Of a stretch of 64,000 nt of DNA, positions 5,881-63,188 are shown piece after piece. The position numbers and the translations under genes are program-made. Positions within the stretch are counted from its first letter, which is position 1. Each line of letters opens with the position of its first letter. The notes under the pieces were generated by a model that saw nothing but the letters and a program-made list of their open reading frames with translations, had not been told where the DNA came from and did not search any database. The stretch is from Naegleria gruberi (Eukaryota), in NCBI GenBank assembly GCA_000004985.1, contig GG738921.1; one strand, 5' to 3'.

Positions 5881-6988
5881 ATGTCTGCTCAATCCATTAG
5901 CTTTTCCAAGTATACAAAATTCGACAATCACTACAGAAAACAATACGTCGAATCGATCAAGACCCAAAATGAAGAGATGAGCAAGAAATTAAATCATCCA
6001 ATGGAATGGTATTGCTCCGAGAAGGTTCATGGTTGTAATTTGAGCTTTATTGTTGATAGAGTAAGGCAATCAGAGTATAAAGTAGAGGTTGCTAATCGTT
6101 CATGTGTTCTTTCACAATCATCAATGAGCTTTTATCCAAAAACAATTGAACAGTTGGAGAAAAAGTTTGAGTGGTGAATTGAATGAACAATTGAAATTGA
6201 AGAGTGTTCAAATTTATGGTGAATTATTTGGTGGATTATTCCCAAATAAGAAACCTTCAGATGCTAAGGCAATTCAAAGTGGAATTCACTATTGTCCACA
6301 TCATGATTTTTATGCTTTTGATGTTCTTCTCGGATTTGAGAATGGAAAACAATCTTGGGCTGTTTTTAACAATGTTGATCCATTGTTGGATGAGTGTGGA
6401 TTCAAAGTGAGAGCTCAACCATTGTTTAAGGGAACTTTGGACGAATGTTTGGAGTTTGATGTTAAATTTAACACTAAATTACCAGAAACTTTCTATCCAG
6501 AAATTGTAAAGGAAAGAAATGCTTCCTGGAAGGATTTGGATAATATTTGTGAAGGTGTTGTCATCAAACCAACCAAGTACAATATCTTTGTGGAAACTGA
6601 AAGAGCTGTAATCAAGAAGAAGAATGAAAAATTCTTGGAAACTGAAGCTAGTGATAAACCACAACAACCAGTGAAAAAGGAAAAGGGTGACTCTGAAGAG
6701 CTAGTTCAGGTATGGAATGAACTCTCACGATACATTACCTCCAATCGTTTGGATAATGTTCTCTCAAAGATTGGAAACCTCACCAAGAGTAACATGTTCC
6801 CAGTTATGAAGGAATTCTCAAATGATGCCCTCGAAGAATTTAAATTAGATTTGGAACGTGGTGCTTTGGAAAATTGTAAACCAGTTTCTTCACTTTCAAG
6901 TGAAGATCAGAAAAAGCTCACTAAAAAGATCAATGATGCTTGTATGGTTTTAATTAAGGAACAATTAAACAAACCATCATCAGAATAA
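5881..6988 (+). CDS. ATP-dependent RNA ligase of the Rnl2 family (phage T4 gp24.1 / kinetoplastid REL-like). The reading frame is broken once, at an A5 run at 6160-6164.
   Basis: The nucleotidyltransferase motifs are all present: motif I EKVHGCNLSF (KxHG), motif III HHDFYAFDV, motif IV EGVVIKP, motif V AVIKKKNEKF. The Rnl2-specific C-terminal domain is also present (SDKPQQPVKKEKGD...NRLDNVLSKIGNL). The N-terminus aligns with T4 Rnl2 (KYTKFDNHYRKQYVESI against KYSSLENHYNSKFIEKL; EWYCSEKVHGCNLSFIVDR against EWVAREKIHGTNFSLIIER). Supplied ORFs 5881-6177 and 6146-6988 are the two frames. Removing one A from the run restores a continuous 368-aa protein. Confidence 0.8.
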
Positions 6989-7098
6989 AGTGCAAGTTGA
7001 CTATTTCGAATAAAAGTGGTGTTACTGAAATAATTTACAATTTTTTGTTTTTTGAATACAAATTGCAATTTATTGATTATTTACCATACAATAACCAT

Positions 7099-7386
7099 TC
7101 AATAATTACGGTGTTTACCCTCATAGGTATGATAAACCTCTACTCTGTCTTGTTGTGGTACAGTATCGCTTCTTTTTTGATGGTCTGGAAAGTTTTGTAG
7201 GTGTTGTCTTAAATTGCCATGAATGTTACCAGTGGCAGCACACTTATGTCCTTGTGGGGTTTGACTACTAATGGGGTTATTTTGAGATTTAATTTGACTA
7301 CTTGTTTGGGAGTTATTTTGAGATTTAATTTGGCTACTTGTTTGGGAGTTATTTTGGCGACCAGTTTGGGATTTATGTTGAGTCAT
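7099..7386 (-). CDS. Possible small S/Q-rich protein (95 aa) encoded across a 36-bp tandem repeat. Low confidence.
   Basis: The ORF starts at an ATG, and the repeats encode NNSQTSSQIKSQ twice. It is divergent from the 7625 gene start. There is no homology support. Confidence 0.15.
   Translation of the reverse strand: MTQHKSQTGRQNNSQTSSQIKSQNNSQTSSQIKSQNNPISSQTPQGHKCAATGNIHGNLRQHLQNFPDHQKRSDTVPQQDRVEVYHTYEGKHRNY
7273..7382. repeat. About 36-bp tandem repeat with 2 full units plus a diverged third unit.
   Basis: The unit gggagttattttgagatttaatttg[a/g]ctacttgttt occurs back to back. The third copy has degenerated. Confidence 0.7.
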
Positions 7387-7624
7387 TTTGTTTCTGGCTT
7401 GTTTTATTTATTTTAACATACCACGTTTAACATCAAAACTTTTATTATAAAGAACTTTTGAGCCAAAAGGGAGACTTCATTTTTGGACAATTTCTTAATT
7501 TATGAAATTACTAGCTCAAGAGAAGCCCAAGACGAGTCAAGGATTTATTTGGTGTTGGTGAGCCTTTAAATTGAACCAATGACAATAAGGATATTGTTAA
7601 GAAATTTTAAAAAATCAGAAAAAA

Positions 7625-9562: not shown

Positions 9563-9601
9563 TAAATTGGATTCTAATATTTTTCAGTTATTTCGAATAA
9601 A

Positions 9602-12373: not shown

Positions 12374-13513
12374 TTAGTTGTATTGATGTTTTGCAGGTGA
12401 TGCCATTCGAATAGGAGCATCTGGATTCAATTGATAATCTGTTTGTAAGAGTGGATACAGTGTAATTGTCTTTCTGGTACACATTGAAATAATTGGGAAA
12501 TACATGACAGATTGTGAGACTAAATCCTGAGTTCCAGTAATTGCTGATGCAATGTGAATTCCATTCTTGAAAAAGTTGACCTGTTTGGCATCGTAATCTA
12601 TAATGACAGCAAATCGATCACCAACAGAGATCTTTCCAACAAATTCAGAACCTACAGTTCCATCAATAAAGTCGCCAAACATTTTGAATGATTTGTTTTC
12701 GAGAATGTAACCAACTCCAGAGTTTCTTTCAACGAATTGAGCTATGGATTTGTCATTATTGAAATCTTCATAATCAGTTCCAATACCAAATGCTATTGTT
12801 AATTGATGGAGGTCAATGTGTCAATATTTCAAATATAGTAAATTTCCAATATACTTACCAACATTCCATGCATTGCCACACAAGAAATATTCTTCAATAA
12901 CCATCTCATATCCTTTAAATCCAAAGTAAAATTGAGGAGATAGTTCTGATAAATCCTTAATCATTGGATATTTGGATGCTTTAAATGCATACCAAGTTGT
13001 AACGTTAATATTTCCAACAGTTCTCTCTCTATTAATGACCTTTTGTTCCTCAACATCAGATGCCTTGTCAAAACACAACTTTTTCATTTGCATCAACACT
13101 GAACTATACTTGATTGCATTTCCCTCTCTCAAAAAGAGCATTTCCCTCAAATATCGATCCAATTCCTTCTCATTCATTGAATTGACCAACGAAACATCCA
13201 AACCACTACTAATAATCTTTGAATTCACTTCATCAATAAATCCATTCATCATACCCAACAATCTATGTTTCCAAATAGTATTTCTATACGCAGCAACATC
13301 ATCCTCTTCATCATCACGATAATTGGAAGAATTCAAACAACCTCCCAAAACCAAATGATAATAAAATCGATTCAAACAAGCAACATTCATCAATGTATTC
13401 TCACAACAATACCACAGAACATTTACTTGATTATCGAGTGGGAGTTCCTGGAATGGAATTTTGTATAACCATTCACCATCAGCAATTTCCAATGTTGTTG
13501 TTGTTGTTGACAT
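12374..13513 (-). CDS. F-box-like + B30.2/SPRY domain protein. Two exons: 13513-12859 and 12792-12374.
   Basis: Donor g|GTAAGT and acceptor ttaacaatag bound a 66-nt intron. The phase-1 join gives ...CGNAWNVA|FGIGTDYEDF.... The SPRY-like core is FGDFIDGTVGSEFVGKISVGDRFAVIIDYDAKQVNFFKNGIHIAS. The N-terminus is F-box-like (ELPLDNQVNVLWYCCENTLMNVACLNRFYY). Confidence 0.55.
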
Positions 13514-23331: not shown

Positions 23332-24586
23332 TTAATTTTCCTTGTCAATCAAGGCTTGATTCACAGCCATTACCACTCTGTAACGAGCTTGATTCTTGAG
23401 AACCTTTTCAACGGCTTGAGTTACATTATCAAGAGTAGTTAATTCAATTTGTGGCTTAATATTGTGATCAGCAGCAAATTGCAACATTTCCTTCATCAAA
23501 TCGGGAGTGGCACTTGCTGAACCAACAATTGCACGATCTTTGAGGATGAGAGGAAAAGCTGATGCTTTATATATGCCAGAATCAGCTATTTAAATTGTTA
23601 TTTAATTAATTTAAATTAATAATTAATAATTAATAATAATATTAGGAAATTAAAAGTAATTAAAAGTAATTGGAATGCAAAACAAGTTAAATTACTTACG
23701 AAGTCCTAACATGACCATCTTTCCGAATGGTTTCAACATTTGGATAAACTTATCATTATCAATATCAGTGCTAACAGTATTGAGAATCATGTCAAATTTG
23801 CATGAAAGAGATTTTGCATCATTTTCTTCTGTGTGGACAAAGAATTCATCAGCTCCAAAGGATCTGCATTCCTTCTCCTTATTTGCATTTGTGGAAAGGG
23901 CTACAACATGGAATCCCATCTTTTTAGCAAATTGGAGAGCTAAATGACCTAATCCTCCCAATCCCAATACTGCTACTACAAATTCATTTCGTTTCGAATA
24001 AGGACTTTCACGATAGTAGTATAATGGTGAGTAAACTGTGGCTCCAGCACACAACAATGGACTGGCATCGACAGATTTCAACTTGTCTGGAATTGGAAAA
24101 ACAAATCTAGCATCCCAAACAACACCTGTTTGAAAACCTCCTCCAATTGGTGCCTTATCGAAAGGTAAGGTCTTGTCACACAAATTTTCGAAATGATTCT
24201 TACAAGTTGGACATTCGAAACATGAAGTGTAGTGCCATCCCATTCCAACACGATCTGATACCTTAATCTTTGTTTCCTTCTCGACTTGCTCACCAACATG
24301 ACGAACAATTCCAACAATTTCATGACCAGGAATGCAACCAACATTATGCAATGAGTGAATATCTGATTATTTAATAATATTTGATTTGGATAACTACTAT
24401 TACTATTGAAAAATACTAACCTGTATAACAAATACTACTGGCAATTACTTCGACAAAAACCTCCAAAGGACCCAAACTTTTCACTTGTTGCTTGATTGGG
24501 CGAAAGGAGAATTCCTTTCCTTCTTCCTTTTCTGCTACTGCATAACCAGAAACTTGGATTGGTGGATTGATTTCCTTGATAGACAT
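23332..24586 (-). CDS. Zinc-containing alcohol dehydrogenase (MDR; cinnamyl-alcohol / NADP-dependent ADH-like). Three exons: 24586-24421, 24362-23700, 23585-23332.
   Basis: The catalytic Zn motif GHEIVG and the structural-Zn Cys cluster (CFECPTCKNHFENLC) are both present. Rossmann segment VAVLGLGGLGHLALQFAKKMG. Donors GTTAGT and GTAAGT; introns of 58 and 114 nt. Phases are consistent and the protein is about 360 aa. Confidence 0.8.
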
Positions 24587-25091: not shown

Positions 25092-26089
25092 ATGGTTGCA
25101 TTCGTGTTGGGTTGTTTGAAATTAGAGGAGGCCAATAAGAATACCTGGTATTATAGAAGGTTTATTGCTAAAGAGACAGTTGATAATATTGATAAGGAAA
25201 CTTCCAAAACCAAATTAATATCACCAAATAATGAATTAGAAGAAGAGCAAGTTCAAGAGCCAATTATTGTTAAGGAATCCATGTTACAGAAATTCAAGAA
25301 TAAGTTTAACAATTTCAAAAGTCATGAAATGTTATCATCTCCAATTCCATTGCTGACATGTTTCCTCTACTTGATGTTGGGATCGAAACAAATCTTATTT
25401 GACGAATGTTTACCTCTCTTTTCAGTTACACCAAAAGAGTTGGGAGGATTAGGATTATCTTCATATCATCTTGGTTGTAAGTTTACAATTTTTGTAATTC
25501 TATAGAAATTAACTTTTACTTTCACATTTCAATAATTAACATGCAAATAGTAACTGGTGGATTTTTAGGATTTATCATATTTATGAATCAGGCATTCATC
25601 ACACCACGTGTTATTGCCAAATTCAGTCCATTGATTTGCTATAGGGTGAGTCTTGTTGTGGATATTGCATTCAATGTAATCTTTCCTGAAGTTATTTGGT
25701 TAATGGTTAGTGAACATGATCCAATTTGGAGACATGTATTGTTCTGGTTTGTTTTCGTATTCATTCTCCTATTAAGACAAGTTTCTAATGGGTACAGTTT
25801 CTTGGGAACTTTACTCATTACAAATAACAGTGTAACCCGAAAGAATTCTGGAAAATTGAATGGAACTTCTCAATCATTGGTTTCACTTTCGAGAATGATT
25901 AGTCCGATTGTTGGTGGGGCTATCTTTGCTAGCTCAACAGCTGTCTCTAAATTTCCAATTGACCATCGCACGGTGTTTTATGTTGTTGGTATAATAAGTG
26001 TAATTATGTTTTTCCTTTCATTGATTTTGAAAAAGTCAATCAATAAGCCAAAGGAAGAAGTTAAAGTGAATGAGGTAGCAAAAAAGTAA
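25092..26089 (+). CDS. Half-size major-facilitator-superfamily-like protein: only the C-terminal 6-TM half. Two exons: 25092-25476 and 25551-26089.
   Basis: Donor t|GTAAGT and acceptor caaatag. Six predicted TM helices. MFS-type loop motif NGTSQSLVSLSRMISPIVGGAIF. The roughly 500 bp upstream, before the ADH gene, is non-coding. Confidence 0.45.
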
Positions 26090-28404: not shown

Positions 28405-29375
28405 ATGCCACAACATGTCCATCATCACTCCCTCTCACCTTCAAGACCAGTCGTCGTTATTGATAATGGCTCGGGAATGATTAAGGTAGGATTTTCCTGT
28501 AGTGATTCTCCCAGAGCCATATTTCCAACAATAGTAGGGCATAAAAAAGAGTCATCAGATCAAAAGAAGGAAACAACCAACAATGATCTCAATAGTATCG
28601 GATCATCATTTGTTGGAGAGATGGCAATAGCTCATCGAGAATTATTGGACATAAAAAGTCCCATGGAAAATGGAATAATTTCAAATTTTGATGATATGGA
28701 AAAGATTTGTTATCATCTCTATCCGGAGTTCTTGTCACAGAACCAAGTTAGAATCCAAAGTTGGTGAGAGAAAAAACAACAGAAATATTTTTTGAAAAGT
28801 TTAAGGCCAATCAGTGATGGGACTTTGTTCGAGTGCCAGATCAGATGGTGTTGTTTTGGATGCTGGTTATACGAAATCATATGCTGTTCCAATTCTTGAA
28901 GGAATTGCATTGCCACATGCCATTCAGGTGATGNNNNNNNNNNNNNNNNNNNNNNNNNNNNNNNNNNNNNNNNNNNNNNNNNNTTCACAAAGAGGAGGTT
29001 TGAATTGTCAGATGGAAGCAAAGTGAATTTTGGAGAGGAATTAATGTCATGTCCAGAAGCTCTATTCAACCCACAGTTAATCAAAGAAGGAGAAGGAATT
29101 CACAAGATTCTCGTCAATTCCATTTTCAATTCAAATGCAGAAATCACAAGACAACTCTTTGCCAATATTGTCCTTGTCGGTGTCTCAACAATGTTTGAAG
29201 GTTTTCCCAATCATTGAATTGGCTCCTCTCTCTGTAAAAGTGAAAATCCTTTCATTCCCCGAAAGAAAACTCTTCCTGGTTTGGAGGTTCAATTACGAGC
29301 TCTCTTTCAGAATTCCACAATATGGCCATTCACAAAAAGGAATATGAAGAAGTTGGACCTAGAATTGTAATGTAG
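28405..29375 (+). pseudogene. Actin-related protein (Arp) gene whose reading frame is disrupted at least four times and carries an in-frame TAG. It is either a pseudogene or a low-quality assembly region abutting an N-gap.
   Basis: Actin-collinear segments lie in different frames: DNGSGMIKVGFSCSDSPRAIFPTIVG; (P)VLVTEPS*NPKLVREKTTEIFFEKF (TAG at 28749-28751 where actin has Leu); QSVMGLCSSARSDGVVLDAGY...ALPHAIQVM; CPEALFNPQL...VLVGVSTMFEGFP; [18 protein letters not shown]; [34 protein letters not shown]. Frame changes fall near 28722, 28805, 29207 and 29270. The N-gap is at 28934-28983. Confidence 0.5.
28934..28983. other. Assembly gap (50 N).
   Basis: Run of n inside the Arp locus. Confidence 1.
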
Positions 29376-29473
29376 AAATGTTTTTAATGCAAAATATGAG
29401 TGCAATGTATCAATATTTCCTGTTATCTATTTCAGACTTACCATTTTCGTTCAAGTTTTTACAAAATAAAAAA

Positions 29474-31277
29474 ATGGCGCAAGATAACACCACGGATGAA
29501 TTGAATGAATTTTTTAATGATTTATTGGAGAGCAATGTGGAAGGAGGAGATAATCCCCTCCTACAGCAACAAGAACAAGAACAACAAGATGATGAATTAT
29601 TGCATCCTATATCATGTTCCTATTGTCGGAAAAACCATCGGTACGTGTGTGGTTCTTTAGAATTATAATTAATAATATTAAATTAAATTAAATAGAAAGT
29701 GTGGTATGTAATTTATCAGCTGATGCCGATTGTGACCAGAATAATAATTACATCATAAATGATGAAATAGATAGAAAGAAGCCTTCATGTACTAATTGTG
29801 TGAGAAAGGGAGTTGTTTGTAACTATTCGGATCCATTAAAGAAGGGAAGAAAAAAGAAATCGGAAAAGGAAGTGGAGGAAATTCATGAAGAGAAGAAGAA
29901 AAATTCTTCAAAGAAAGCTGTTAGTAGTAGTAGTAGTGGAAGTAGTCATCATTCAACAACAACCTCTTCAGCAATTCCCTATAAAACAATTCATATCGAT
30001 TCCGATGATATTCTATTGAAAAGATCAACATTTGATTTATTTGGTCTATTGTACGTTGTTAGTAATTGTTTAAATAATTATTGACGATTGGAAATAGAGA
30101 TATACCAATTCAACAATCAGATTTTGAAAATTATTACAATATGGCTCAGAATGGAGTGTTAAAGGATGATGTTATTAATGCAATCTTATTTGGTTGTCAG
30201 GCTCTAATTGACCAAAGATTAGGAGATAAGGAAGCATCGAAATTATCATTTAATAAGGCAAGGAAACTCATACAACCATATTTTGATAATATTGATGATA
30301 TTAATGTAGGATGTGTCTACTTTTTATTTTGTTCGTTTGAAGCTTCAAATGCAAATTATAGAAAGGTAGCTCTATATTATAATATTTTGAAAACCTTTGT
30401 GGATGAAATTGTCAAAATGGAAAATTCCAACATCAAGTTGACAACACAAATGAAAAGGTTAAAAAGCAGGACTAGATTTATTGAAATGACTATGAGTACC
30501 TCTCAAGATATAGACTGTAATAATCCTCTAGCAATTGCCAAAATGTTTCCAAGACTGGTCTATGTTGCCACAGGAGTTGATGGATTTGCTGAACTATGTG
30601 CAAAATTAGAACATTTAGATAAGGACAGAATTGAAGAACATTTAGCTACTGTTGATTCTGTGTGCATATTCATGAACAATCATATGAGACAAATGGACGA
30701 AAGTGGTGATCGCAAAAATGTAATTGATTTAATGGGAAATATTGTTTCGAATGGAATGAAACTGGCTTCCTACCTCACAGTAGATAATGACAATTGGGAG
30801 AAGATAATGACTTACTCGACCAATATTACTACAGCAACAGAGAATCCACTCTTTGTATTTCTTCCAGCGGCTGTTGTGTCTCATGTTGCCATGGCAGCTA
30901 AACAACATTTGAGACTGTGGTCCTTAATCAGATTGGGAATGGTTTCAGATTTCTTCCAAGGAAAAAACACTCTCTCACAATTAATCTATCAAAGTTATAG
31001 AGCTCTCAGTATTCTCTCCACTCGATTCGATCGCGTCCAAAAATTCTACTCTGATCTCTATCAAGAATTGGAACACTTCATTAAGGAATACTTTACCCAA
31101 CAAAATCAACTTGATTCCACCCTTCTCAACAATACTACTATTGTTATTGATAACAACACTGCAACAACTACAAATGAACCTTTATTACCTGACCTACAAC
31201 CACCACCACCAGAAAGTTCATTCACAAGCATGCTTGATGATTCTTTCTTTTTCGATCCACCACAACATTTTGAATAA
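29474..31277 (+). CDS. Putative Zn(II)2Cys6 (GAL4-type) transcription-factor-like protein, at least 3 exons (29474-29640, 29700-about 30060, about 30081-31277). The exon 2/3 junction is unresolved.
   Basis: Exon 1 ends CSYCRKNHR with a GTACGT donor. Exon 2 continues (R)VVCNLSADADC...KKPSCTNCVRKGVVCNYS, a C-x2-C-x6-C cluster, followed by a basic stretch. The C-terminal 398-aa ORF has no clear domain. Confidence 0.4.
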
Positions 31278-31505
31278 CTTCAACTATCTCACATTCCGAA
31301 AACGATCTCATACGCTTTCTCCTATCTAATTCTGCTTTGGGAAACGAGACACAAATTTAAAAAATCAACCATCACAGAACTCAAGATTTGTTGCCAACAC
31401 AATCCTTTCAAACAACCAATTATCAAAAACAAAAGCTTCCTCTTCCTGCCACAGGTTTTTTAATTTTCTCCAATCTAACTTTGTTGTTTTGAGTTTGGGA
31501 AGATC

Positions 31506-34500: not shown

Positions 34501-34756
34501 TCTAGAAGAGTCACCAGTAGAAGAACAAAAAGTAATTGGCCAAAAATTGGACCTGATTGAAGAGGTGGAAAAGTTTATTACAGATCCGGGCTCATTCCCA
34601 GCTGAAAGAAAGTCAAAATTAATATATGACTTTATCAACCACACCTCCGATGCTGAGCTCAATCTTCCATCATGGAATAGCAAGTATTTTATTGATTTAT
34701 TCGACAATGTCTTCCGTTACATTACTACCCAACATGTAAACATTAAGGAAGAATAA
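31506..34756 (+). CDS. Receptor-type class III adenylyl cyclase (about 1060 aa). Two exons: 31506-32886 and 32955-34756.
   Basis: A 68-nt intron has donor g|GTAAGT and acceptor ttttgacag, joining phase 1. The N-terminal roughly 240 aa are N/Q/S/D-rich. TM1 is LALVLIVGVWCVLSF. A roughly 400-aa luminal/extracellular domain follows, then TM2 (VIGIVIASLFVISLFFCTIFITGLVLYFMY), then the cyclase domain. The cyclase domain has the first metal Asp in FTDIQNST, the second Asp in KTAGDSFTVAF, and the N/R pair in VGNMVHIANKIE and GPRIRMGIHAG. Confidence 0.75.
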
Positions 34757-36698: not shown

Positions 36699-37169
36699 TT
36701 TTTTTTGATTGATTTTGTAACAAGTTCAGTAAGAAATTGATAGTTGACAGGAAAGTTCAATAGAGATAACTCAAAATTTTGCCAATCTTTGTGAGAAAAC
36801 CTTCATAAAAGATTAATTCTCCATTCAAATTCTCACACCTCCAAAACTGTAGTTTGAATTTCAACACGTTCAACAAAAAGAAGGAAATTCCAAGAGAGAA
36901 AAATTGGTGCAAATTTGGGTCCAATAACGAAAATAATTGTCGCAAAAGAATGGTAACAATTGGCTCAATGAATACTTCACAATTGGTAAAAAACCAATAT
37001 TCCTCCCTATTCCGCACTCTATTTCTGCCAACCACCAAGTAAATTTAATAAAATTCAATATAATATCCCAAGATAATACAAAAATCTGCAAGAATTTTTT
37101 TTTTCAAACTCGAAAAAAAACAACCAACGAACCCGCGCGATTTTTTAGTTAGAAAAAAAACAAACAACA

Positions 37170-38905: not shown

Positions 38906-40511
38906 ATGCGAGCAATTCTTTGTCATCTATTTATCATTTGCTGCATGTCAATAGTTGTTGCATGCCAACAACAGCAACCAACCAATGGTACTCTTGGTTT
39001 CATTTACTCACTCAACTCAACCAAATCTGTCAGCTATCTTCTCCCAAATATTGGTGGCACAATTAGTTGCATGGTCGAAGGTGATTCAGTTCTCTATGGA
39101 GAGTTCTCATTGAGTGAAAGTACAGTGAAACCAGGATATACATGGACAAATTCGAATTATAATAAGCCATTGTCTCCAGTTGCTTTCTTTACTTTGAATT
39201 TGAGTCAAGTTTTCATTCCGCCAAATGTCACTGAAGATCAAATTGATTTTGAAACATCATTTATGGTCAATTGGAAGAGTTTCATTCCAACAAGCTTTAA
39301 TCTTGATCCAACTTCATACGAAATTAGAAAATATTATGCATCTGCCAATAGTTTTTACCCATTTTCCACTTATGCACCAAAAGATTATGGAACTTTAGTC
39401 CAAATCGAAGATGCCTCAGAAATTGTTATCACATTTGGTATTTTCGTGTTCAATTCAATGCAAAAGGTTTCTTTTGATGAGTACGTAGCTATTAACTATC
39501 CAAGATCCTTGTGGTTGGACAATTATAGTTCAGACAATATCAAAAATGTTTCGTATAACTTTCCATTAGCAAGTTATACTCCACATGCATTAACAAATAA
39601 TGTAATCAAGGTGATAAGGGGCTCTACAGGTAGTAAGGGAGCCGTACCAAGTAATTATGCAATCCTGGGTCTGTTTTTATATAGAACTTATGAGGGTCAC
39701 ACCAGTAACATTACTCTAACTCAGTCATCTGTCTCTATTTCTTATGAGAAATCACAATATTATCTTGATTTTAGCTATAAAATGGTTGATATAGATATAG
39801 ATACATTGACATGCCAATTTATTGCTTATAATTCATTAACTTCACTTAAAAAGACTCTCACCAAGGATCAATTGATTTGTGACTTGGACAATTCATATTC
39901 ACAAAATCATGATTTGTATATTATTGCCAAATTGAAGCCTAAACCACCTACTCCACCTACTCCTCAACCATCCAATAATAATAATGGAAACAAAAAGACA
40001 ATATTGATGGTTACAGGATTTGAAGAAACTTTAACTTTGACGAAAGGTCAAGAACAAGTTTTTCATGTTTTTGCAAGTTCCAAAAAGAAAGTTGAGTTTA
40101 AAACCAGTTTTATTTTTGGTGGATTAACTACCAAACCAGAATTTAATTCATTTTGACGCCAAGCTCACCAATGGAAATGGAATCATTTCGAATATCTATT
40201 CGTATAATGTCTACTTGTTGGTTTCGAATACTGATCTCCTTGCCACGGATTGCAAATTCTCAATTACTCCAAATGTAACCTCCCTCCCAGGTTCAACAGA
40301 TCCAAACAACAATTCGAATCTATTCTCCATAGAACAAATTCTTGTCATTGTTCTACCAATAGTTGTTGGTGGTGGCGTGATGGTTTGTGCCATTGTTGCC
40401 TTTATTATTGTGGCACTTGTTGTTTACAGAAAGAGAAGGAATACAACAACATCAGATATGAATGTACAATTGATGCAAACAACTCCCTATTATGAAATTA
40501 GTAGACAATAA
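38906..40511 (+). CDS. Type I membrane glycoprotein-like protein: signal peptide, large extracellular domain, one C-terminal TM and a short tail. There is a frame break near 40125-40160.
   Basis: ATG at 38906 (MRAILCHLFIICCMSIVVAC). ORF 38765-40156 and ORF 40215-40511 overlap in different frames. The second ORF encodes the TM segment ILVIVLPIVVGGGVMVCAIVAFIIVALVVYRKRR. Many N-x-S/T sites are present. Confidence 0.5.
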
Positions 40512-41097: not shown

Positions 41098-42725
41098 TTA
41101 ACTATGATTTTTACATACAATAAGATTAGNNNNNNNNNNNNNNNNNNNNNNNNNNNNNNNNNNNNNNNNNNNNNNNNNNCTGATAAGCTTACTGACAACC
41201 TCTTGAGTTTTCTTGATTCCTCTTGGTGCCAGAGGTTCCTCATACGTTCCATCATTTGAAATTATTCCTGGCTGAACAGTATCTGGAGTGTTAAGGAAAC
41301 TTGGAGGAGAAACTGCATGTTCATCAGTGGCTGGCCAATTTGACATGGGCGATATTGGAGGGGTTGAACTCACAGCAGTTGAAATGGTAGAGTTTGCCCT
41401 GTAATGAACTGAAGGTTGAGAAGGATGACTCTCTTCCATAATTTGATCCATTTCAATTACTGTATTGACAAAGGTATGAACAGAGTCAGCAACCAAGCCA
41501 CTAACTTTCTCAGTGTCTCTCCTTCTCAAGAATACTCTGATATTCTTCAATTTCTTTGTGAGAATCATCAATCTGATGGTTGTAATAACCCAATAAATAA
41601 TAAATACAATTACAAATACTAGGAAAATTCCAAAAACAAAGAAAATGACTGAATACCAAGGAAATCTGTAATAGTCAATTATACCATATGGCCACTTAGT
41701 TGCAGCTCCAGTTTCCAAAATAACTTGAACCCAAATGCAATAAATTGATGGATAGAGAAGCACCAGGAAAATGTGCCAAATTCTGAAAACCAAATTAGAC
41801 AGGAAAAACTCAATAATGTTAAATAGTAGATTCATGCCATGATACCCGAATGTAAAGTAGGACATTGGGTCGGGGTCGTTATTAGTTGGATTTCCATTTG
41901 CAAGGTCGGGTATAACCATGACCCAATATCCAATCACAACCACGACTGCCGATACATGATTCCACTCAGCAAGTAACCACAGTACCGTAGAAACGAAACT
42001 AAATAATTTTCGGACCAAAGGATGCAATTCATCTAAACTTTTAGTAGGTCCTTCAGTTTCAGATTCATTAAAGTACTTGTAGCATGATGTAATGTAAAAC
42101 AATCCAAATACTGATTGCAAAACATAGTAAATTGCCAGCACTAGAGCTGAAGTATTTGTAAAAAACGAAAAGTATGTCATGAAATCCTTTGGTCTGAAAA
42201 AGGTTGGATCAATAGACATTTGCACTGTTATCCACAATGCAACAATCACTCGGAAAATGTACAGTAATATGGTTAATGGTCTTTTAAAGCCAAATCCTTC
42301 AAAGACAAACTGTGAAGGATCACGCAATCTTTACAAATTAACATCATGATAATGCATGACAGAATTAGATTCATTATTAGGACACAATTTGAAAGAATCA
42401 ACACAATCCATATTCGAAACAATATTGCAACTACTTACCTATTATAAATGATTTTCTTGTCTTCCTTTTCCAATTCTTTCTGATCTGAAAAATTGGGTTT
42501 TGGCACAGAATTAGGATCCTTTCCCAGTCTAAATGTCATTTGCCTCTGTTTAATGTATTCATCAGTTCGTGTCTTTTTCTGTTGAAATCGAAAGCCTTTC
42601 GTTATCAGAACAGTAACTGCTCCAAATATGATAAAGAAGAAAGTCGTTACGTTGGTCGAAATGATCAGGGATGGAACCAAATTAAAGTATGGTCGATCAT
42701 CCCGAAGGAATGGTACAACAGGCAT
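41098..42725 (-). CDS. Multi-pass membrane protein of unknown family. Two exons: 42725-42439 and 42328-41098. The 3' region is interrupted by an N-gap.
   Basis: Donor ag|GTAAGT and acceptor tgtaaag bound a 110-nt intron, joining phase 2. About 8 hydrophobic helices. The C-terminal tail is S/P-rich. The gap at 41130-41179 leaves the 3' end uncertain. Confidence 0.5.
41130..41179. other. Assembly gap (50 N).
   Basis: Run of n. Confidence 1.
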
Positions 42726-46260: not shown

Positions 46261-48462
46261 ATGAAATTGAAAAGAAACAAGAAGGAAAGTGATTCTAATG
46301 AAATCAAGGACGAAAGGGAGCCAAATATTAGGTTCGCCATGTGGTTTATTGTGAGAATAATGGGATGGGAAATGATTTGGATTGTATTGGGAATGATTGG
46401 ATGGGCTGCGCTTGGTTCCATTCCGGTAAGTATTCGAATGTTGAATTTTATTCGAAAGCTTAACACCTATTATATAGCATGGTAAGTTTGCTAAATGTGA
46501 ATTGCAATTTTTCTAATTACAATGAAAATAGTATTCAATATTTTAATGGGTGAATTAATTAAGGCTGTTTTCTCATCGACAACTGCCAAAACAAGTTATA
46601 CGAATGAAATTAATAATTTAGCCATGTGGATGGCCATTATTGCAGTTATTGCAGCTATTGTCATGTGGATGGGTTTTTCAATGACAAGTTATGCATTTGT
46701 AAGTTTCTTTCGAATAAGCTCAATTCTAAACTTTCTAAATTAGGAAAGAATTGGTGTAAGATTCAAGACAGCTTATATTGAATCCCTTTTAAAACAAGAA
46801 ACTGGTTACTTTGATATGAAAAGAACTGGTGAACTCATGTCTTGGATGACCGAATCAATGGAACAAATTCAAGACAGTTTCAGTAACAAACTCGGAAGAA
46901 TCGTCCAGTTTAGTATCCAAATCATTTTGGGTGTCATCTTGGCCCTTGTCTTTGCCTGGAAAATGGCCATCGCCATGGTTGCCTTCTCTCCATTAATTGC
47001 AGTCTTAATGTTTGCCTCAGGATTCGCCTCACAACTCGTCACTAGAAGAACCATGAAAATTTCCAATGAAGGATCTGCAATGGCCAACGAAGTTATTGGA
47101 GCTATTCGTACTGTTCGTTCTATGGATGCTGAACAAAAGGAAATTGACAGATATAAGAGACAAATGAGATCAGGAAATGCCATGTATGTCATTAAGGGAA
47201 TTGTTTTGGGATCTCCAATTGGTTTTTCTGAAATTTGCATTTGGGGAATTTTAGCATTTGGAATGTAAGTTGAATTTTAATAGAATTTGAGAAATTTTAA
47301 CATGTATTAGGTGGTGGGGAGGTAAATTATTACAAGATGGTGAAATTGAATTCCAAAACATGTTCAGAGTTTTCACATTGCTCTTAATGTCAGTTTTGGG
47401 TAGCTCACAAATTATGAGTTTCCTTCCAGATTTGACACGTGCCATTGCTGCCAGTAAGAATCTCTTAAAGGTCATTCACAGAAAACCAGCCATGAGATTT
47501 GGAGGTGGAATTACCCCAGAAAAAATTGAAGGAAAGATTGAATTTAAGGATGTTTGTTTTTCATATCCAACTCGTCCAAATATTCAGGTTTTGAAGAACT
47601 TTACTTTCAATATCAAACCTGGTCAATCAATTGCTTTAGTTGGTAGTTCAGGATCTGGTAAATCAACCATTGTTAGTTTATTGGAAAGATTTTATGAACC
47701 ATCGAGCGGTAATATTATTTTGGATGGAAATGAATTGGCTGAAATTGATCCACATTGGCTTCGTAGTCATATTGGATTGGTTGGACAAGAACCTGTATTG
47801 GTAAGTTTTTTTATGAACTTTCGAATATTTATATTGTGAAATAGTTTGGTGGTACTATTAAGGAAAATATTTGTTATGCTATTAGAAAGACTTCTATTGA
47901 TCCGTTCCCAAGTGATGAAGAAATTATCAATGCTGCTAAAGCTGCCAACGCTCACGATTTCATTTCCTCTCTTCCAGATGGTTACAATACCAAATTAGGA
48001 GAACGTGGTGTTTCCTTATCCGGTGGCCAAAAACAACGTATAGCCATAGCCAGAGCTGTCATCCAAAATCCTGAAATTCTACTTTTGGACGAAGCCACCT
48101 CTGCCCTGGACACAAACTCTGAAGCTGTAGTCCAAGATGCCCTCAACAAACTCATGAAAGGAAGAACAACCATTGTCATTGCCCACAGATTGTCCACCAT
48201 TGTCGATTCAGACATGATTCTCGTTTTCCATAAGGGTGAATTGAAAGAAGTTGGTACTCATGATCAATTGATGGATTTAGAAGGAGGTCTCTATGCAGAA
48301 TTGGCCAGAAAACAAATGATGAGAAAGGAAGAAAGTTTGGATAAAATACCATCAGTTCCATCCGCCATTGATATGTATAAGGAAGATGAGATTGAGATGC
48401 AACCATTAGAAAAGATTCCAAGTACTGATTCGGCTGATTCGAATGAAGATTCTATGGTTTAA
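46261..48462 (+). CDS. ABC transporter, ABCB-type half-transporter (TMD+NBD), at least 5 exons: 46261-46425, 46564-46698 (or a 4-nt microexon plus 46532-46698), 46744-47264, 47311-47800, 47845-48462.
   Basis: All donors are GTAAGT and the phases are consistent. Walker A is GSSGSGKST. The ABC signature is [15 protein letters not shown]. Walker B is [12 protein letters not shown]. The H-loop is IAHRL. Confidence 0.8.
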
Positions 48463-48562: not shown

Positions 48563-50629
48563 TTATTNNNNNNNNNNNNNNNNNNNNNNNNNNNNNNNNN
48601 NNNNNNNNNNNNNNNNNGTTTCTTTCACTCTTTCGAATATGTCAATCATATCATTCATGCAGTGAAGTTGAATTTTTCTGAAGAATGGCAAAAGATCAGC
48701 ATNTGAATCAATTAACCCTTGTAATTCATCATAAATTTCGTCCAATTTAGGATGATTCAACTCAAGAGGTGATCCTTTCGTTAAATAGGTTTTCTGAATG
48801 TGGATTGCAATCTTCTTTCTGTTTTTTGGTTTCGTCCTGGTGATCCTTTCCACATCCTTGTAGCAGAGAATCGGTTCTGGACAATAAGACCTTCTGGCAA
48901 AGTCCAATATTATCGTAAAGGTCTTCTTATTGGCCAAACATTGTTCCAATCCAGAATCTTGATTCCAATCCACATGTTTCTTATCCGATAACCAAGCATA
49001 CACTATTGGCAATGTTATACTAATCACCACATCCGAAATACTGTAAAACAGCAACACATTTCCATAAGGAATGAAAAAATCCAAAAATTTTGAAAATACT
49101 GGAATAAAACCAAACGCCACAAATATCACAATACTCAATAATTTCAATAACACCAAAACGAGTGTTTCCTTTCTCATATTCCACGTATCTCTATCTGCAA
49201 TTATACACAAAATAATGAGAATTACCTCAACAACAATGTAGAAAAATGTTTCAACTCCAACCAATATAAAAGTTGAATTGGTAATGCCACATCCTCTCTC
49301 CACAGTGAATAATCCACCATCATTAGTAAAGATGGTCGTTCCCTTTCTCAATTTCTGATCCCATTCAATTCCACCCATTATGAGAAATAGAATAACATGA
49401 AGTGAAAAGATAATGAAATAGCACAGTACAATAAAGAGGTTGCTCACGAAAAAGTTTAACACCTTTGCTCGTTTCATTTCCTTTTCAAAATCTTCCCTAG
49501 CTACAGAAAACCCATCACTGTATGTGTATGATTTGACATCGTCATCTGCCATTGAATATTCAGTAACATCAAAATCCACCATTTTGACAGACCGATCAAC
49601 GTCTTTTAAGGAGAAGTTACTAGCTGATTTCTTTTTAAGAAATGCCCTAGGGGAAGTGTTGCTACTTTCATTTCTTGTTAATGCTACTGAACTATCTATT
49701 GAAATATTCGAAACTGGACTAGTTGCTCCACTCGATTCATTCATAACTCCATTCGACTGCACATCTGCATTATTTTGAAACGCCTCCACAATGGTTGTAT
49801 TTGTCGATGTATTTGTTGTTGTATTATTACTAGACTTGCCATTTCCTTTTTTAGTTATCTTATGAGCTAAAGATTCCAAATTCGTTGTCGATTTTCCAAC
49901 CGTTCCACCAATCAACATTTTCATCTTTCTCAAATTCAACAAGTGTAGCAATACCAATCGATAACATCTAAAAATTGCTGGAAGAATCAACGAAGGAGGC
50001 AAGACGAAATAGGTCACCGAATAAATAAAACATGGATATTCTCTCCTACCAATTGCATATCTCAGGGAGGTCGAATAGATAATGAATGCACTTGCGAATA
50101 GTGTAAGAAACATGTAGACTAAACCTCTGGATTGAATGTGTCGAGAGTTTCGTTTCCAATACAAGCCGAAACATGTCAGAATGAAGAGAATGGAATAGAA
50201 AAACATGATTGCAATGGAAAACGAAACTGAAAGCCAAGTTTCTGGACAAATCCCATAAATTACTGTTGCATTAGGTCCGTATCGACTAAAATCGCCCAAA
50301 TTTAGAAGAATCGTATAACATCCATTGAGTGGATCTACAGTTGAATTAGTACTCGAGTTATTGAGTTGTTGTGAAGAGGATGATGAATTATCTAAATAGT
50401 TGTCAGCTTGATGTCGGGTATTATGTACTATAGAATAGTATTCTTTCGAATCGAATATACGAATCAATGAATTCATTTGAAAATTATCCTCTTCGATTGA
50501 CTGCGATGGAATTAATGTTTGATGACTGCAAATGCCGAATACTAGCAGTAGCACTGACAATTTTACAGCAATTTCCCTCAGCCGTTTGAAAGTCTGCTGC
50601 TGGCATTTGACAGGTTTAATTGCTGGCAT
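48563..50629 (-). CDS. Seven-TM receptor fused to a C-terminal RGS domain (7TM-RGS). The 3' end runs into an N-gap.
   Basis: Signal peptide and a roughly 130-aa ectodomain, then 7 predicted TM helices. An RGS box follows: FTIILDFARRSYCPEPILCYKDVERI...IHIQKTYLTKGSPLELNHPKLDEIYDELQ. Gap at 48568-48617 and a single n at 48703. Confidence 0.65.
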   Translation of the reverse strand: MPAIKPVKCQQQTFKRLREIAVKLSVLLLVFGICSHQTLIPSQSIEEDNFQMNSLIRIFDSKEYYSIVHNTRHQADNYLDNSSSSSQQLNNSSTNSTVDPLNGCYTILLNLGDFSRYGPNATVIYGICPETWLSVSFSIAIMFFYSILFILTCFGLYWKRNSRHIQSRGLVYMFLTLFASAFIIYSTSLRYAIGRREYPCFIYSVTYFVLPPSLILPAIFRCYRLVLLHLLNLRKMKMLIGGTVGKSTTNLESLAHKITKKGNGKSSNNTTTNTSTNTTIVEAFQNNADVQSNGVMNESSGATSPVSNISIDSSVALTRNESSNTSPRAFLKKKSASNFSLKDVDRSVKMVDFDVTEYSMADDDVKSYTYSDGFSVAREDFEKEMKRAKVLNFFVSNLFIVLCYFIIFSLHVILFLIMGGIEWDQKLRKGTTIFTNDGGLFTVERGCGITNSTFILVGVETFFYIVVEVILIILCIIADRDTWNMRKETLVLVLLKLLSIVIFVAFGFIPVFSKFLDFFIPYGNVLLFYSISDVVISITLPIVYAWLSDKKHVDWNQDSGLEQCLANKKTFTIILDFARRSYCPEPILCYKDVERITRTKPKNRKKIAIHIQKTYLTKGSPLELNHPKLDEIYDELQGLIDSXADLLPFFRKIQLHCMNDMIDIFERVKEXXXXXXXXXXXXXXXXXX
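48568..48617. other. Assembly gap (50 N).
   Basis: Run of n. Confidence 1.
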
Positions 50630-56321: not shown

Positions 56322-56438
56322 ATAATCCACTTCCAAGTACCCAAATGTTCATGACATATATAATAATGATGATGACAGGTTTAAAGTTCCCCAAAATTAT
56401 TTCCATGAACATTTGAGTACTTGGAAGTGGATTCTCAT
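56322..56438. repeat. Imperfect inverted repeat: about 32-bp arms with about 30/32 matching, separated by a 50-bp spacer.
   Basis: Arm 1 is ataatccacttccaagtacccaaatgttcatg. Arm 2 is catgaacatttgagtacttggaagtggattctcat. It lies between the DUF4116 gene start and the stop of the 56435-57522 gene. Confidence 0.6.
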
Positions 56439-57522
56439 CTTTGCATTTCAGTACTGTGTGAAATACAAGTATAGCCAGTGAGTATCATTATTTTAATTGG
56501 ATCGATAGTTCTATTCCATTCCAATAAGATACTCTCCTGAAAAACTTTAGTTTCATTTAGTCTCTTTAGGGCGCTTGTTTTAACAATGGATGCATTTTGT
56601 AATCGATGTAAAATGATTAGATTTTCAATGGATTTCTGTGCATTTTCAATGGAAATCTCAATTTCACCTCTTTTTAAATCAATCTTGTTGATTACGAAAA
56701 CTATCGAAAAAGAGTTTCGTTTTTTAAAACGAATTATATCACAAAGAATCTTGTTTAAACTTTGGACTGAATCCTTTTGATCCAAGCTACAAACAAGCAC
56801 GAAACACGACTGTTCCGTACACATTTTCCTAACTTCTTCTTCTCTTTTTTCCTTTTCGTCTTGCACTTCATAATAATCTTTTTCCATTATTAGAATGTTA
56901 AAATTACATTCAAATTATATTTTCGTACCTAGTTCTTTAACTCTAATAGTCAATTCTACACCATCAATCTCTAATTTTATCCTCCTTGAAGACAATATCT
57001 TCCTATTAGGCGATCTATCAAATAATCCATCAGCAACTCGCCTCACAATACACCTCTTTCCAACATTGTCAATTCCCAAAAGAAGAGCAAACATTTCCTT
57101 TTCTGGTTTGGATTTCATCCTTAATTTTCTCTTCATGCACGAAATTAAAACTTTTCTTCGCATTGAAACCTTTGGATTGGAAAGAATTTTGTAAATTGCT
57201 TCAAACTCATGATGGTGTTGTCTGAAATAGAGTGTATCCTTCATTTCCTTTTTCTGTTTCAAATTCTGTACATCTTTCCAGGTTTCCATGTCCAATTCCT
57301 TGTCCACATCACATTCATATCTAAACAATTTAAATTTCATCATGAAATAATTCCACCAAAACTCATCAAAATAATCATCAAGATCCTGCATATGCATTGC
57401 ATATTAAACATATCCCAATGATACCCAAGAATATCCAAATCATCATCTTGATCATTCCTAATAAACTTCATTATCAAGAGAAGAATTTCTGGAGGTAAGG
57501 AAGTAAAAAGTTCTCGTTTCAT
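56435..57522 (-). CDS. F-box-like N-terminus fused to a divergent Ras-like GTPase. There is a 51-nt intron (56878-56928) and a frame break near 57400.
   Basis: ORF 57340-57522 begins MKRELFTSLPPEILLLIMKFIRND (F-box pattern). ORF 56915-57397 carries the G1-like LLGIDNVGKR. Donor cta g|GTACGA and acceptor aaaaag|at restore the frame across an in-frame TAA. The 3' exon has NKID (G4) and TSAL (G5). The F-box and GTPase ORFs overlap in different frames. Confidence 0.45.
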
Positions 57523-58099: not shown

Positions 58100-58325
58100 T
58101 TCACGTTCATTTGGAATGAAATGAACATCTCAAGAACAATAATTGCTTATATTTTAATACTGGATTTTTGTGAAACAATTAATCCATGAATGTGCAAAGT
58201 TTAACCGACCAATGCTACTTTGTGCCTCGAATGTACTTCCAAATTCAAATGGTCCTGCCTCAAAAGATGCTTCCAAATTAAGCAACGGGACACAGTAGTA
58301 ACTTTTGATTACGTAACAAAACAAA

Positions 58326-59059: not shown

Positions 59060-59268
59060 AGGAAAACAGACTTTACATAATTCACACTTGTTCATTGTAT
59101 CATTCCCCACTTCAACACCTTGAAGATAAATCTGTTGAATGTACCTGAAGGAAAATATCAACGTGTAATTCGTTAAAGAATATTTTATTTTTTTTCTAAA
59201 TTTTTAAAAAAAATCATCAACATTCGTAACGGTAACTTTTGTGGTTCCTGAAAGATTGGTCTTCAATT

Positions 59269-61159
59269 TTATTTACTATTCACCAAGACAGGACTAAAGT
59301 TACCCTTGAAAGAAACAATGAGTACAAAGGCAATAATCAAAAATACAAAATCTGTCCACAAAATAATTGATGGAGCTAGAGGAGTACACAATTGCAACAC
59401 ATTAATATAAACCATGAAGAGAATACTCCACAAAGTAGTCAATGTACTTGAAATGGTCATGGTCGTAGATGGATGAACTGGATAGGTCGTATAGACAATC
59501 ATTTGATTCAACAATGGCATTGTAGGTACTGAAAACATTCCGATCAATACAAAGGACATTCCAGACAAGACTAACAAGACATCATTCTTCTGCCACAACA
59601 TTAATATACAGAACCATAGGAAGGCTAAACAAGCAGAGGCACTGGTAATGATTGTGATGAGTTTGAATTGTTTGGTCTTATCAAAGAGGATACTCAACAC
59701 GATGGAGGAAATTGTAGCAAAGACAATCAAGATAATATTCAAATTACCAGAATCAATGGCTGTATACTTGTTACCCTTGATGATTTGTTCCAAAATATAG
59801 ATGGATTGGAAGAAGGAATTGATGAGTGTGGAAGCAGCTAATAACATGAAGAAGGATGGTAATCGGATCAACTTTTTCAAACCAAAGACAAATGTTTGAG
59901 GAGGATAAACATCTTTTGGTTCTTCTTGTTTTGTCTTGGATTGTTTGGTTTCAGCTGCTGATGTTTCAAGGTCTTGATTGGATAATGGTTCTTCAGCAGT
60001 GTTGGAACCTTCAGTTAGAGATTGTGTGAGGTCACCATTAAAGCCAGGATTGGATTCTTCTTTGGTTGGTTCTGGAGCTATAGCAGGTGGTGTAGGTGGC
60101 TTACTCTTAAAGAAGAGCAAAACAAGAAAAACACACAAGGTTGCCATTACTCCTTGAATTCCCAAAAAGATGCCAAGGCCCAAATCTGAAATCTTTAAAT
60201 CCTCTTCACTTTCACTTCCAATGGTCATGAGACGAGGTCCAACAAGATAGGACAAGAGACTTCCGAATACACCTGAGAACAAGACAACAACCTGCACAAC
60301 TGTTCTCTCCTTATTTCCAAACCAAAAGACTCCAAACAAGTCACCACATTGAGTAATGAATGGTTGTCCACATGCAATGAAGATTTGTCCAATTAATGAA
60401 AGCCAAAATGAAGTTTCATTTCCCTATTATCATTCAAATTGTGGAGGTTGAATATGTGTAAAAAGGATATGTGAAATGTATGAAAACTTACTTGAATACC
60501 AATTAATCTAATCCATGCACCAATACATGTCAGTATAGAATATATAGAAACACTCCATTTTAAACCAAATCGTTTCAGAACGAATGAAACTAGAAAAGTA
60601 ATTGGAATAGTTGCAATTAAAAAGACCAAAGAAGTCATATTAATCTTCCAATTAGCATCAAGGCGGTAAAACTTCATCAATAGAGTTCTAATAGCATGGA
60701 CAATTTCATTAGGACACCACAAATTACTTTTGTTACTAGTACTCACCCTGAAGTTGTATAGGTCGACATGCAAATAATAGAAGTGACCATACATAATGCA
60801 AATATTGCTAATTGAAACCATCTTCTAATGTATAATTTAGGTTCTTGAGTTTGTTCTTGTTGTTGATGTTGACTCGGAAGAGGGGAGGACAAAATCTCTT
60901 CCTGTTGTTGTTCATCTTGTGCCTGCAAGCTACCATTATTAAGGGATGGATAGGAACCATCAAGCTCCTCTTTATATTGCAGAGTTTGATGAGGTTGCCT
61001 TCTCTCATCAAGGAGTTGTTCCCCGACATCTACTTCATATTGGTGATCTTTCATCATGCGACACTGCTGAATGGTGTAGTGAACTCTTTTTTTAAATAGT
61101 GAAATCATTTGTTGCTGGATCATCATTCTATCTCTCTTTGGATGTTTGTGCGCAGTCAT
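59269..61159 (-). CDS. MFS transporter, FLVCR/MFS-7-like. Exons are 61159-about 60745, about 60744-60492, and 60423-59269. The frame break near 60745-60760 is more likely an indel than an intron.
   Basis: There is a 68-nt intron (donor caa|GTAAGT, acceptor gataatag) in phase 0. Collinear with FLVCR-type proteins (RRWFQLAIFAL...; GAWIRLIGIQ|GNETSFWLSLIGQIFIACGQPFITQCGDLFGVFWFGNKER). About 12 TM helices. Confidence 0.65.
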
Positions 61160-61395
61160 GATGATGTTGAGTTCTTCTTTGGGTGTGTGAATTGTTTATT
61201 AAGGAAGATTAAGGGGTTAGATTCTGCTTGAGGAGGAAGAGGATGAGGGTTTATTCAACTTTCCAATTATCATGGTTGGATGGGGGTGGTAGCGAGAAGG
61301 AAAAGGAATTATGATAGATCAAACAAAGCAGATATGTCCCATGTATGTTATCATGTTAAGATAAAGATGCATAATGGTGATGAAGATAACATTGT

Positions 61396-63188
61396 TCATC
61401 TCAGATAAATATCACCATTCTTTTTGAATAGCTGATAGAGGTAGGCATCTCTTTGAGGAATTGGAAAACCATTCCTTTCATTCTCCTTCAAGTATTTGAG
61501 TCCAAGCTTGTAGAATTTACTGGCTCGGTTGGTAATGACCTTGTCCATCATTAATTTTGGAATGGATCCTTTCATGTCAATATAGTAAATCTCATGGAAT
61601 TTAGTTTCATTTTCCGAGAGGGATTCAAAGAACCAACCGCCCACTACACATGCCTTAATGATTTTCTTTTTGGATTTCTCTTGTTTTTCATTGTGTAATT
61701 GGTGCTCTGGATTTTCTTCCAAACACAACGAGTCACAACTCTTGAATCCTATAATGTACAGATTGCTCACTCGATCGTGTACTGAGCTGGTGCAGACAAT
61801 GATTTCTCGATCCTTGATTGGCCAAATGAGTTTGTACTTTTCATGATTTATGACTGATGTGAAGAGTTTGTCCTTTGTTTGAATGTGAGGCTCTTCAACA
61901 TATTTCACCGTTTGAATATCATAAATGTACTCATCTATCTTTTGTCTATATTCTTGATTGGTAAAAGTTTTCAAAACTTGTTTTACATTGTAAGGAAAGA
62001 GAATTTCAAATTTGAAAAATTTCAATCCAACACTATTTCCAAAATCATACTTGTCTTTTGTAAAGTAGCACTTGTATTGTTTCTGATTGACTGCCAAAAT
62101 CCATTCTCTATTGTTGATAGTTTCTCCACAAAACACTTTTCTTTTAAGGAAGGCAAAATCACCAAGTGAAAAGTTTTGATTTTTCAAATCGGCCATTGAT
62201 TCAACAGCCATATACTCTATACCTTCTTTGAGGGTCCCAATTTCATGTAGAATATCAATGGTCTTGCCACTTTTTATCAAGTAATTATGAAACAAGTCAC
62301 TTTTCAAAAAACCATGGAAATAATTCAACTTGAGTGATTCGTGAATAAACATTTCAACCTTTCTAAACAAGTTTTCTGGATTATCGGCATGCTCTTGGAA
62401 ACACTTTTTGAATGAATTGATGGTTTTCTCTTTCAAAGTGTGTGGTAAATTGATTCTTTAGGTGAAATATTGCAAATGAAAGTTTCAATAATGCTATTGG
62501 CAATTTTCTCAACCTTTTCGAATTTTTCCATTGTTACAAAAGAGCTAGACATCCGATCGTAATTTTTGTCTGAAATGTTGTGTGGAATCATTACACCGTT
62601 GTGAGCTATTTCATCACTGTCAATGACATCTAGAAATGTCATTGAAATTCCATCATGTGACAGCTCATCCTCATGGGATTCAACAGATGAAAGAGAAACA
62701 TTGGAAATTACAGAAGAGGAAGTATTCTTTCCTTCAATCAGTGAAGGGGGATTGAAACTAGAGGGAGTGGACGAAACCAAATACTGTTTACATATAAATC
62801 TGTAATGTTTGGCGCTTTCCAAGAATTCTACAGCTTCTTCCATCTTTTTAGTTAGTAGAAACTGCTTAAATATCGAATAGATTTGTTTGTGAGTGATAAC
62901 TGCTTCGTAGCTGTAATGGAAATTCGAAAGATCTTGTTCATCAATCACTTTACTATTCGAATGTTGTTTTGATGAGGAAGATGCTGAAGATATATCATCT
63001 CTGGAATGCTCAATCTCATATCCCTCGTCTATATCAAGTAAATGTTGAGTGGAAAAGAATTTTCCTGGTAAATGTGAAGTTTGGCTGATAGTTGTGGACA
63101 TTGAAGACATGGGTAAAAGATCAAGGTGTGATGGTTCACTGTTGCTCTTGAAGGCAGAAGTGTGATGCATGGTTTGACTTGATGGCAT
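61396..63188 (-). CDS. Paralog of the 43989-45740 gene: RGS-box-like N-terminal motif, Ser-rich linker and START-like domain. There is a frame break at a T-run near 62437.
   Basis: RGS-like segment HKQIYSIFKQFLLTKKMEEAVEFLESAKHY. START-like C-terminus REIIVCTSSVHDRVSNLYIIGF...ACVVGGWFFESLSENETKFHEIYYIDMKGSIPKLMMDKVI. ORFs 62433-63188 and 61396-62436 abut; one extra T would fuse them as ...ESIYHTLLKEKTINSF. Confidence 0.5.

Follow-up and report, generated by a model that had tools for sequence, protein, structure and literature searches.

Frame breaks of several kinds in seven genes of a Naegleria gruberi draft scaffold

The genomic window

The window, a stretch of 64,000 nucleotides (nt) of contig GG738921.1 analysed over its whole length, is part of a 207,235-bp scaffold of Naegleria gruberi NEG-M. 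Three of its single-exon proteins are matched exactly by the NEG-M proteins XP_002669888, XP_002669890 and XP_002669897. Seven genes in the window change their reading frame: an Rnl2-type RNA ligase gene, two genes for actin-related proteins (Arps), a type I membrane protein gene, an MFS transporter gene, a gene with RGS and START domains, and a gene with an F-box-like region and a GTPase domain. A preliminary description had read all seven breaks as one-base assembly errors at short homopolymers in intact, well-conserved genes. The breaks are, however, not one recurring feature. They comprise a predicted intron, a deletion, a decayed gene copy, as judged from its lesions, and four isolated single-base shifts, either draft errors or real alleles (Table 1). 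It is quite probable that several ordinary causes, acting within a Sanger whole-genome shotgun draft scaffold, account for them.

The DNA has a GC content of 33%, is gene-dense and uses the standard genetic code. Stop-to-stop open reading frames (ORFs) of at least 150 codons span about 44 kb of the 64 kb. A non-standard genetic code was rejected, as long standard-code ORFs extend over about 70% of the window.

Frame breaks in the seven genes

The ORF map confirmed a frame change at all seven loci, visible as adjoining or overlapping ORFs on the same strand in different frames. Pfam domains are divided between the ORF pieces. The RNA_ligase profile is matched from 2 to 33 and then from 40 to 170, the Actin profile from 3 to 291 and then from 303 to 393, and the RGS profile from 1 to 40 and then from 67 to 117. 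The three 50-N gaps reported for the window are present as well.

The MFS break, placed before at about 60750, coincides with a predicted ordinary GT-AG spliceosomal intron of 59 nt. This intron is open in the downstream frame and therefore resembled a one-base shift. A second intron follows in the same gene. The spliced MFS protein yields a single MFS_1 match covering profile positions 1-346 of 347 (81.8 bits). The 11 clear introns of the window are 44-114 nt long, with GTAAGT-like donors and YAG acceptors, and exon joining across them results in stop-free products. Neither exact look-ups nor homologue searches brought up any transcript-derived sequence. The spliced ABC transporter shows continuous matches to ABC_membrane (profile 8-272) and ABC_tran (profile 1-137). 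A canonical intron would thus explain the MFS frame switch, and at least ten others in the window would cause a similar switching between ORFs. No strong or acceptable donor-acceptor pair was present at the breaks of the RNA ligase, second Arp, membrane protein, RGS/START and F-box-GTPase genes.

The RNA ligase gene, with the Pfam domains RNA_ligase and T4_Rnl2_C, agrees at 99% identity with P0001, the N. gruberi model, in which the break is skipped. The lesion had been described as a one-base break at an A5 run (6160-6164). The run adjoins the lesion, which is a 68-nt deletion with the loss of 23 conserved codons. The metagenome contig L001, about 98% identical, aligns base for base with the window save for 68 extra bases bounded by TTTG. 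These encode FGPMSIQLFESIERVLPKWAELD, about 23 residues between EQLEKK and LSGELNEQ. The segment is present in all homologues including the 98%-identical P0002, and the window copy lacks it. Since 68 equals 2 modulo 3, the deletion produces the observed frame shift. Upstream of the break, the frame terminates at TGG TGA A. According to this alignment, a real deletion between two TTTG repeats would have inactivated this copy, a loss that is fixed in the strain or else confined to one haplotype.

Related ligase genes from metagenomes differ in their state. L001 carries a premature TAG (ATGAAG to ATGTAG, about 1397-1399), L002 two frameshifts (about 1523 and about 1810-1876) and L003 an intact ligase of 400 amino acids (2681-3883). 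L002 and L003 originate from one common sample. These differing states suggest that the gene has decayed repeatedly within the N. gruberi group, as far as can be read from the contigs. In the alignment of the window with L001, 8 synonymous, 3 replacement and 1 nonsense changes were counted in the ligase, indicating a gene under constraint until recently.

Between the ligase and the next gene lie about 600 nt (7008-7606) that L001 lacks; there the two genes are separated by only about 11 nt. The region is an insertion/deletion polymorphism between strains. A short ORF on the minus strand of this region (7099-7407) has a tandem SQNNSQTSSQIK-type repeat.

The first Arp is, by its sequence, a decayed actin-like pseudogene. 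A tblastn search with actin recovered six pieces in three frames between 28453 and 29384, two of which hold stops. The preliminary description had spoken of genes that change frame once, with several sites in the first Arp. At least four frame changes are found in this gene (near 28722-28728, 28805-28812, 29205-29215 and 29262-29275), together with two in-frame TAG codons (28749-28751 and 29373-29375). Several codons are lost at three of the four junctions, and the LSGG motif has decayed to LVGV. One of the 50-N gaps splits the gene and replaces roughly the actin residues 176-236. The proposed history is that of an old pseudogene which would have accumulated several frameshifts, two nonsense codons and codon losses, and which was cut by an assembly gap.

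The remaining four breaks are compatible with single-base shifts. The second Arp and the RGS/START gene would each have lost one base; the membrane protein and F-box-GTPase genes would each carry a shift of 3n+1 or 3n+2 nt. The T5 run of the second Arp is an A5 run on the coding strand. Addition of one A to it restores the sequence IEKTRASIHE and a single Actin match (profile 3-393, 205.5 bits), and no intron is possible at the break. Neither the repaired protein nor the truncated ORFs had an exact match in a collection of 15 billion proteins. The second Arp ends with MWILR and a stop codon (35665-35690, minus strand), about 15 residues before the actin C-terminus. No actin-like continuation follows MWILR in any frame.

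In the RGS/START gene (61396-63197), a one-base repair (SPKEINLPHTLKEK) makes RGS profile positions 37-117 continuous across the break (56.3 bits), compared with 45.8 bits for a 2-nt repair in a CA repeat. The one-base loss reported for this gene is thus supported, and its site has to be moved from the run at 62437 (62435-62437) to the best-fitting AA at 62454-62455. An intron is not possible at this break either.

The membrane protein gene (38906-40511) contains one extra base or a 3n+2 loss, and runs of A3, T3 and T4 occur in its interval. TTT TGA C closes the upstream frame, and no possible intron was found. An exhaustive search of 1.84 billion representatives with the upstream ORF recovered as relatives only the public model and two homologues of about 30% identity. 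The distant homologue P0128 is collinear over the break, without a large loss. This lesion and the one in the F-box-GTPase gene (56435-57522) are placed only to within their intervals.

For the F-box-GTPase break, the homologue search provided no homologue to place the lesion, and no strong-donor intron is available. A 104-nt intron at this site was rejected, as it would delete the Trp at the consensus F-box position. The F-box call is based on LPPEILLLIMKFI and on a Trp spaced as in the consensus; Pfam did not detect an F-box even at E ≤ 1. Contrary to a single change of frame, the gene has in addition an in-frame TAA, located in a 51-nt segment. Removal of this segment results in a single Ras match (profile 3-155, 39.4 bits), and reading through it leaves a best stretch of only profile 67-155 (37.6 bits). 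Probably the segment is an intron whose AAG acceptor is unusual; if it is not, the TAA interrupts the gene as a nonsense codon. The GTPase domain (56435-57200, minus strand) has degenerate motifs, GIDNVGKR for GxxxxGK[ST] and KELG for DxxG, and retains NKID. Judged by its motifs, it may be a candidate pseudo-GTPase.

Homopolymers and the restored proteins

A position close to A/T runs had been claimed for the breaks. In comparison with random intervals, length-matched to the permissible ones, this proximity does not exceed chance. An A/T run of at least 3 bases occurs in 77-97% of the random intervals, and one of at least 4 bases in 34-66%. The T5 run of the second Arp is the sole somewhat unusual case (14% of random intervals). 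Errors of flow chemistry are expected first at the longest runs. In 31.4 kb of in-frame exons, 146 homopolymers of at least 5, 33 of at least 6 and 10 of at least 7 bases are unbroken, which is the opposite of such an error profile. Assembly GCA_000004985 of NEG-M was obtained by Sanger sequencing (PMC9928731 Table 1; PMC8040595), so a pyrosequencing or semiconductor signature cannot apply.

The proposal that one restored base returns a continuous protein holds for the second Arp and the RGS/START gene. It fails for the RNA ligase, with 68 nt lost, for the MFS gene, with its 59-nt intron, and for the first Arp. The membrane protein and F-box-GTPase genes are compatible with a single-base indel. 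The affected genes are not generally well conserved either: those for the membrane protein, RGS/START and F-box proteins have few or no detectable relatives. The caution against calling pseudogenes from frame evidence alone is justified for the second Arp, RGS/START, membrane protein and F-box-GTPase genes, as each has one isolated 3n+1 or 3n+2 shift, long intact flanking ORFs and no possible intron. It does not extend to the RNA ligase, the first Arp and the MFS gene, where the breaks have other causes.

Other features

Two further genes with introns were noted for their domain content. The Zn-cluster gene (29692-30084) weakly matches (E = 3e-4) the fungal-type Zn(2)-Cys(6) binuclear cluster domain. 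The cyclase gene (31479-34756), whose two ORFs are joined by an intron, encodes a spliced protein of 1,070 amino acids with an OpuAC-like substrate-binding domain and an adenylate/guanylate cyclase catalytic domain.

Table 1. Positions of the frame breaks, introns, gaps and related features in the window
Feature	Position	Strand	Remark
Rnl2-type RNA ligase gene, disrupted	5881-6988	+	Pfam RNA_ligase and T4_Rnl2_C over two frames
68-nt deletion junction, RNA ligase	6165-6169	+	TTTG 4-nt repeat at both ends of the lost segment
First Arp, putative actin-like pseudogene	28453-29387	+	tblastn with actin, three-frame reading, Pfam Actin on pieces
Second, divergent actin-related gene, NAEGRDRAFT_60995	35665-36725	-	Pfam Actin 3-291 on one ORF, 303-393 on the next
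One-base-loss interval, second Arp	35898-35926	-	Bounded by the stops of both frames; holds T5 35922-35926
Frame-change interval, type I membrane protein gene	40128-40156	+	Frame reading
51-nt segment GTACGA...AAAAG, F-box-GTPase gene	56878-56928	-	In-frame TAA 56915-56917; probable intron
Frame-change interval, F-box-like/GTPase gene	57340-57403	-	3n+1 loss somewhere in the interval
MFS second intron, 68 nt	60424-60491	-	GTAAGTTT...GATAATAG; canonical
MFS intron, 59 nt, GTGAGT...TTAG (predicted)	60688-60746	-	GTGAGTAC...CTATTAG; only strong-donor GT-AG pair joining both frames
One-base-loss interval, RGS/START gene	62433-62460	-	Frame reading
Intron, SPRY-domain gene	12793-12858	-	
Intron, alcohol dehydrogenase	23586-23699	-	
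Intron, alcohol dehydrogenase	24363-24420	-	
Intron, second MFS-like gene	25477-25550	+	
Intron, Zn-cluster gene, 47 nt	30051-30097	+	GTACGT donor
Intron, cyclase gene, 68 nt	32887-32954	+	
Intron, ABC transporter	46699-46743	+	
Intron, ABC transporter	47265-47310	+	
Intron, ABC transporter	47801-47844	+	
50-N gap	28934-28983		
50-N gap	41130-41179		
50-N gap	48568-48617		
Single N	48703		
Invented intron of public model P0001	6075-6153		RNA ligase
Invented intron of public model P0125	35916-35959		Second Arp
Invented intron of public model P0126	40091-40139		Membrane protein

Explanations for the breaks

Most of the four single-base shifts are, somewhat more probably than not, draft consensus errors. 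The lesions are single and isolated, and the ORFs downstream of them, fully open for 86-353 codons, favour this reading. The consensus of an 8x Sanger draft contains roughly 1 error per 10 kb, a rate with which some four one-base errors over the 64 kb agree. Homopolymer errors of pyrosequencing or semiconductor type at all seven sites, with every gene intact in the organism, are very unlikely. The one-base repairs of the second Arp (at its T5 run) and of the RGS/START gene, and a gapped draft assembly, speak for them. The Sanger platform, the 68-nt loss in the ligase, the intron of the MFS gene, and the nonsense and missing codons of the first Arp oppose them, as do a run proximity at chance level and the 33 unbroken runs of at least 6 bases in intact exons. 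As the single cause of all seven breaks this explanation is refuted, and it survives in part for the four sites. Recoding at these four sites is exceedingly improbable. The same holds for programmed ribosomal frameshifting at one or more of the breaks, for example a +1 shift at TTT TGA C of the membrane protein gene, where the Phe tRNA, slipping by +1 on the T4 run, would enter the downstream frame exactly. On reading the sequence, no heptamer of the type X XXY YYZ was present at the three sites needing a -1 shift, the directions of the shifts vary, a common motif is missing, the homologue searches gave no orthologue over the sites, and the ligase break, ending in TGG TGA A, proved to be a deletion. 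Frameshifting was rejected as a general explanation. Tiny introns at the four sites were rejected too; only weak donors exist, and conserved residues would be removed.

Real mutations are the more serious alternative. The four single-base shifts could well be recent frameshift alleles of the strain, a view given somewhat less than even weight. Rather unlikely is the wider proposal that all non-intron breaks are real mutations, the assembled haplotype of a clonal, probably polyploid laboratory strain carrying many recent null alleles and pseudogenes. A base-calling error cannot produce the 68-nt deletion, independent ligase lesions occur in relatives, the first Arp carries multiple disabling changes, the affected genes have a lineage-restricted distribution, and runs of 2-5 bases are counted well by Sanger reads. 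Yet six disabled genes of about 35 in 64 kb are a very high load, the open downstream ORFs require all lesions to be very recent, and the draft error rate predicts a similar number of single-base shifts. An unusual recent load of null alleles in NEG-M or its assembled haplotype, combined with a repeated independent loss of the Rnl2-type ligase in the N. gruberi complex, is a degree less likely again.

Several observations weigh against the explanation by ordinary causes with draft errors at the four sites. Protein look-ups, a homologue search with four segments and a scan of JGI metagenomes provided no independent NEG-M or close-strain sequence over these sites. Apart from the N. gruberi models, the homologue search recovered a single distant Arp, and the metagenome scan, using patterns from all four genes, no relatives. 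Literature searches yielded nothing on frameshifts or pseudogenes at these N. gruberi loci. With at least one recent real inactivation in the window, that of the RNA ligase, and an old pseudogene, the first Arp, true frameshift alleles are a plausible alternative. All four genes with single-base shifts are restricted to the lineage and may be dispensable. In the GTPase gene, the AAG acceptor of the 51-nt putative intron is unlike those of the 11 clear introns. The first Arp lies within about 500 nt of a gap on both sides, and low-quality read ends beside the gap may explain some of its lesions.

Public gene models

The public models P0001, P0125 and P0126 step over the breaks of the ligase, the second Arp and the membrane protein by invented introns with poor donors (GTATAA, GTCCAG and GTTGAG). 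The 44-nt intron of P0125 (NAEGRDRAFT_60995) deletes CPEALFQPSLIEKTRA, and the model reaches 184.3 bits in two pieces, less than the one-base repair. The 49-nt intron of P0126 deletes VEFKTSFIFGGLTTKPNQ. The RefSeq/UniProt proteins for the ligase, NAEGRDRAFT_60995 and the membrane protein are wrong, with conserved residues deleted, and comparative studies using these models inherit the errors.

The main value of the analysis lies in annotation. In an intron-bearing eukaryote, GT-AG introns have to be excluded before a frame switch between ORFs is read as an indel. Short A/T runs are uninformative for this purpose, as nearly any AT-rich interval contains one. No open biological question is touched, with the apparent repeated decay of the Rnl2-type RNA ligase in Naegleria as a mild exception.

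Comparison with known systems

Errors of 454 and Ion Torrent sequencing at homopolymers resemble the breaks in two isolated one-base shifts at or close to short A/T runs, T5 in the second Arp and AA or AAA in the RGS/START gene. They differ in that this is a Sanger assembly, the runs of 6-8 bases in intact exons all stay unbroken, more than one base is involved in three of the seven cases, and run proximity is at chance. Indels in the consensus of Sanger drafts share with the window the scattered isolated single-base shifts, the gaps and N, and gene models bent around breaks. Among the broken genes only the first Arp adjoins a gap, and the likeness is a presumed one. The TTT TGA C of the membrane protein gene is similar to the bacterial RF2 frameshift site CUU UGA C.

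The first Arp resembles established pseudogenes in that it has several frameshifts as well as nonsense codons and has lost conserved residues. The four single-base cases differ from them, with one lesion each in otherwise intact long ORFs. For the ligase, related strains have disabling lesions of their own, as in decaying genes. Its 68-nt loss between 4-nt direct repeats is like microhomology-mediated deletions. The sites in the RNA ligase, second Arp, membrane protein, RGS/START and F-box-GTPase genes, without a usable donor-acceptor pair, differ from the short GT-AG introns of Naegleria. The MFS break and ten other frame switches are like these introns, with GTAAGT-like donors and YAG acceptors, and splicing restores continuous domains.

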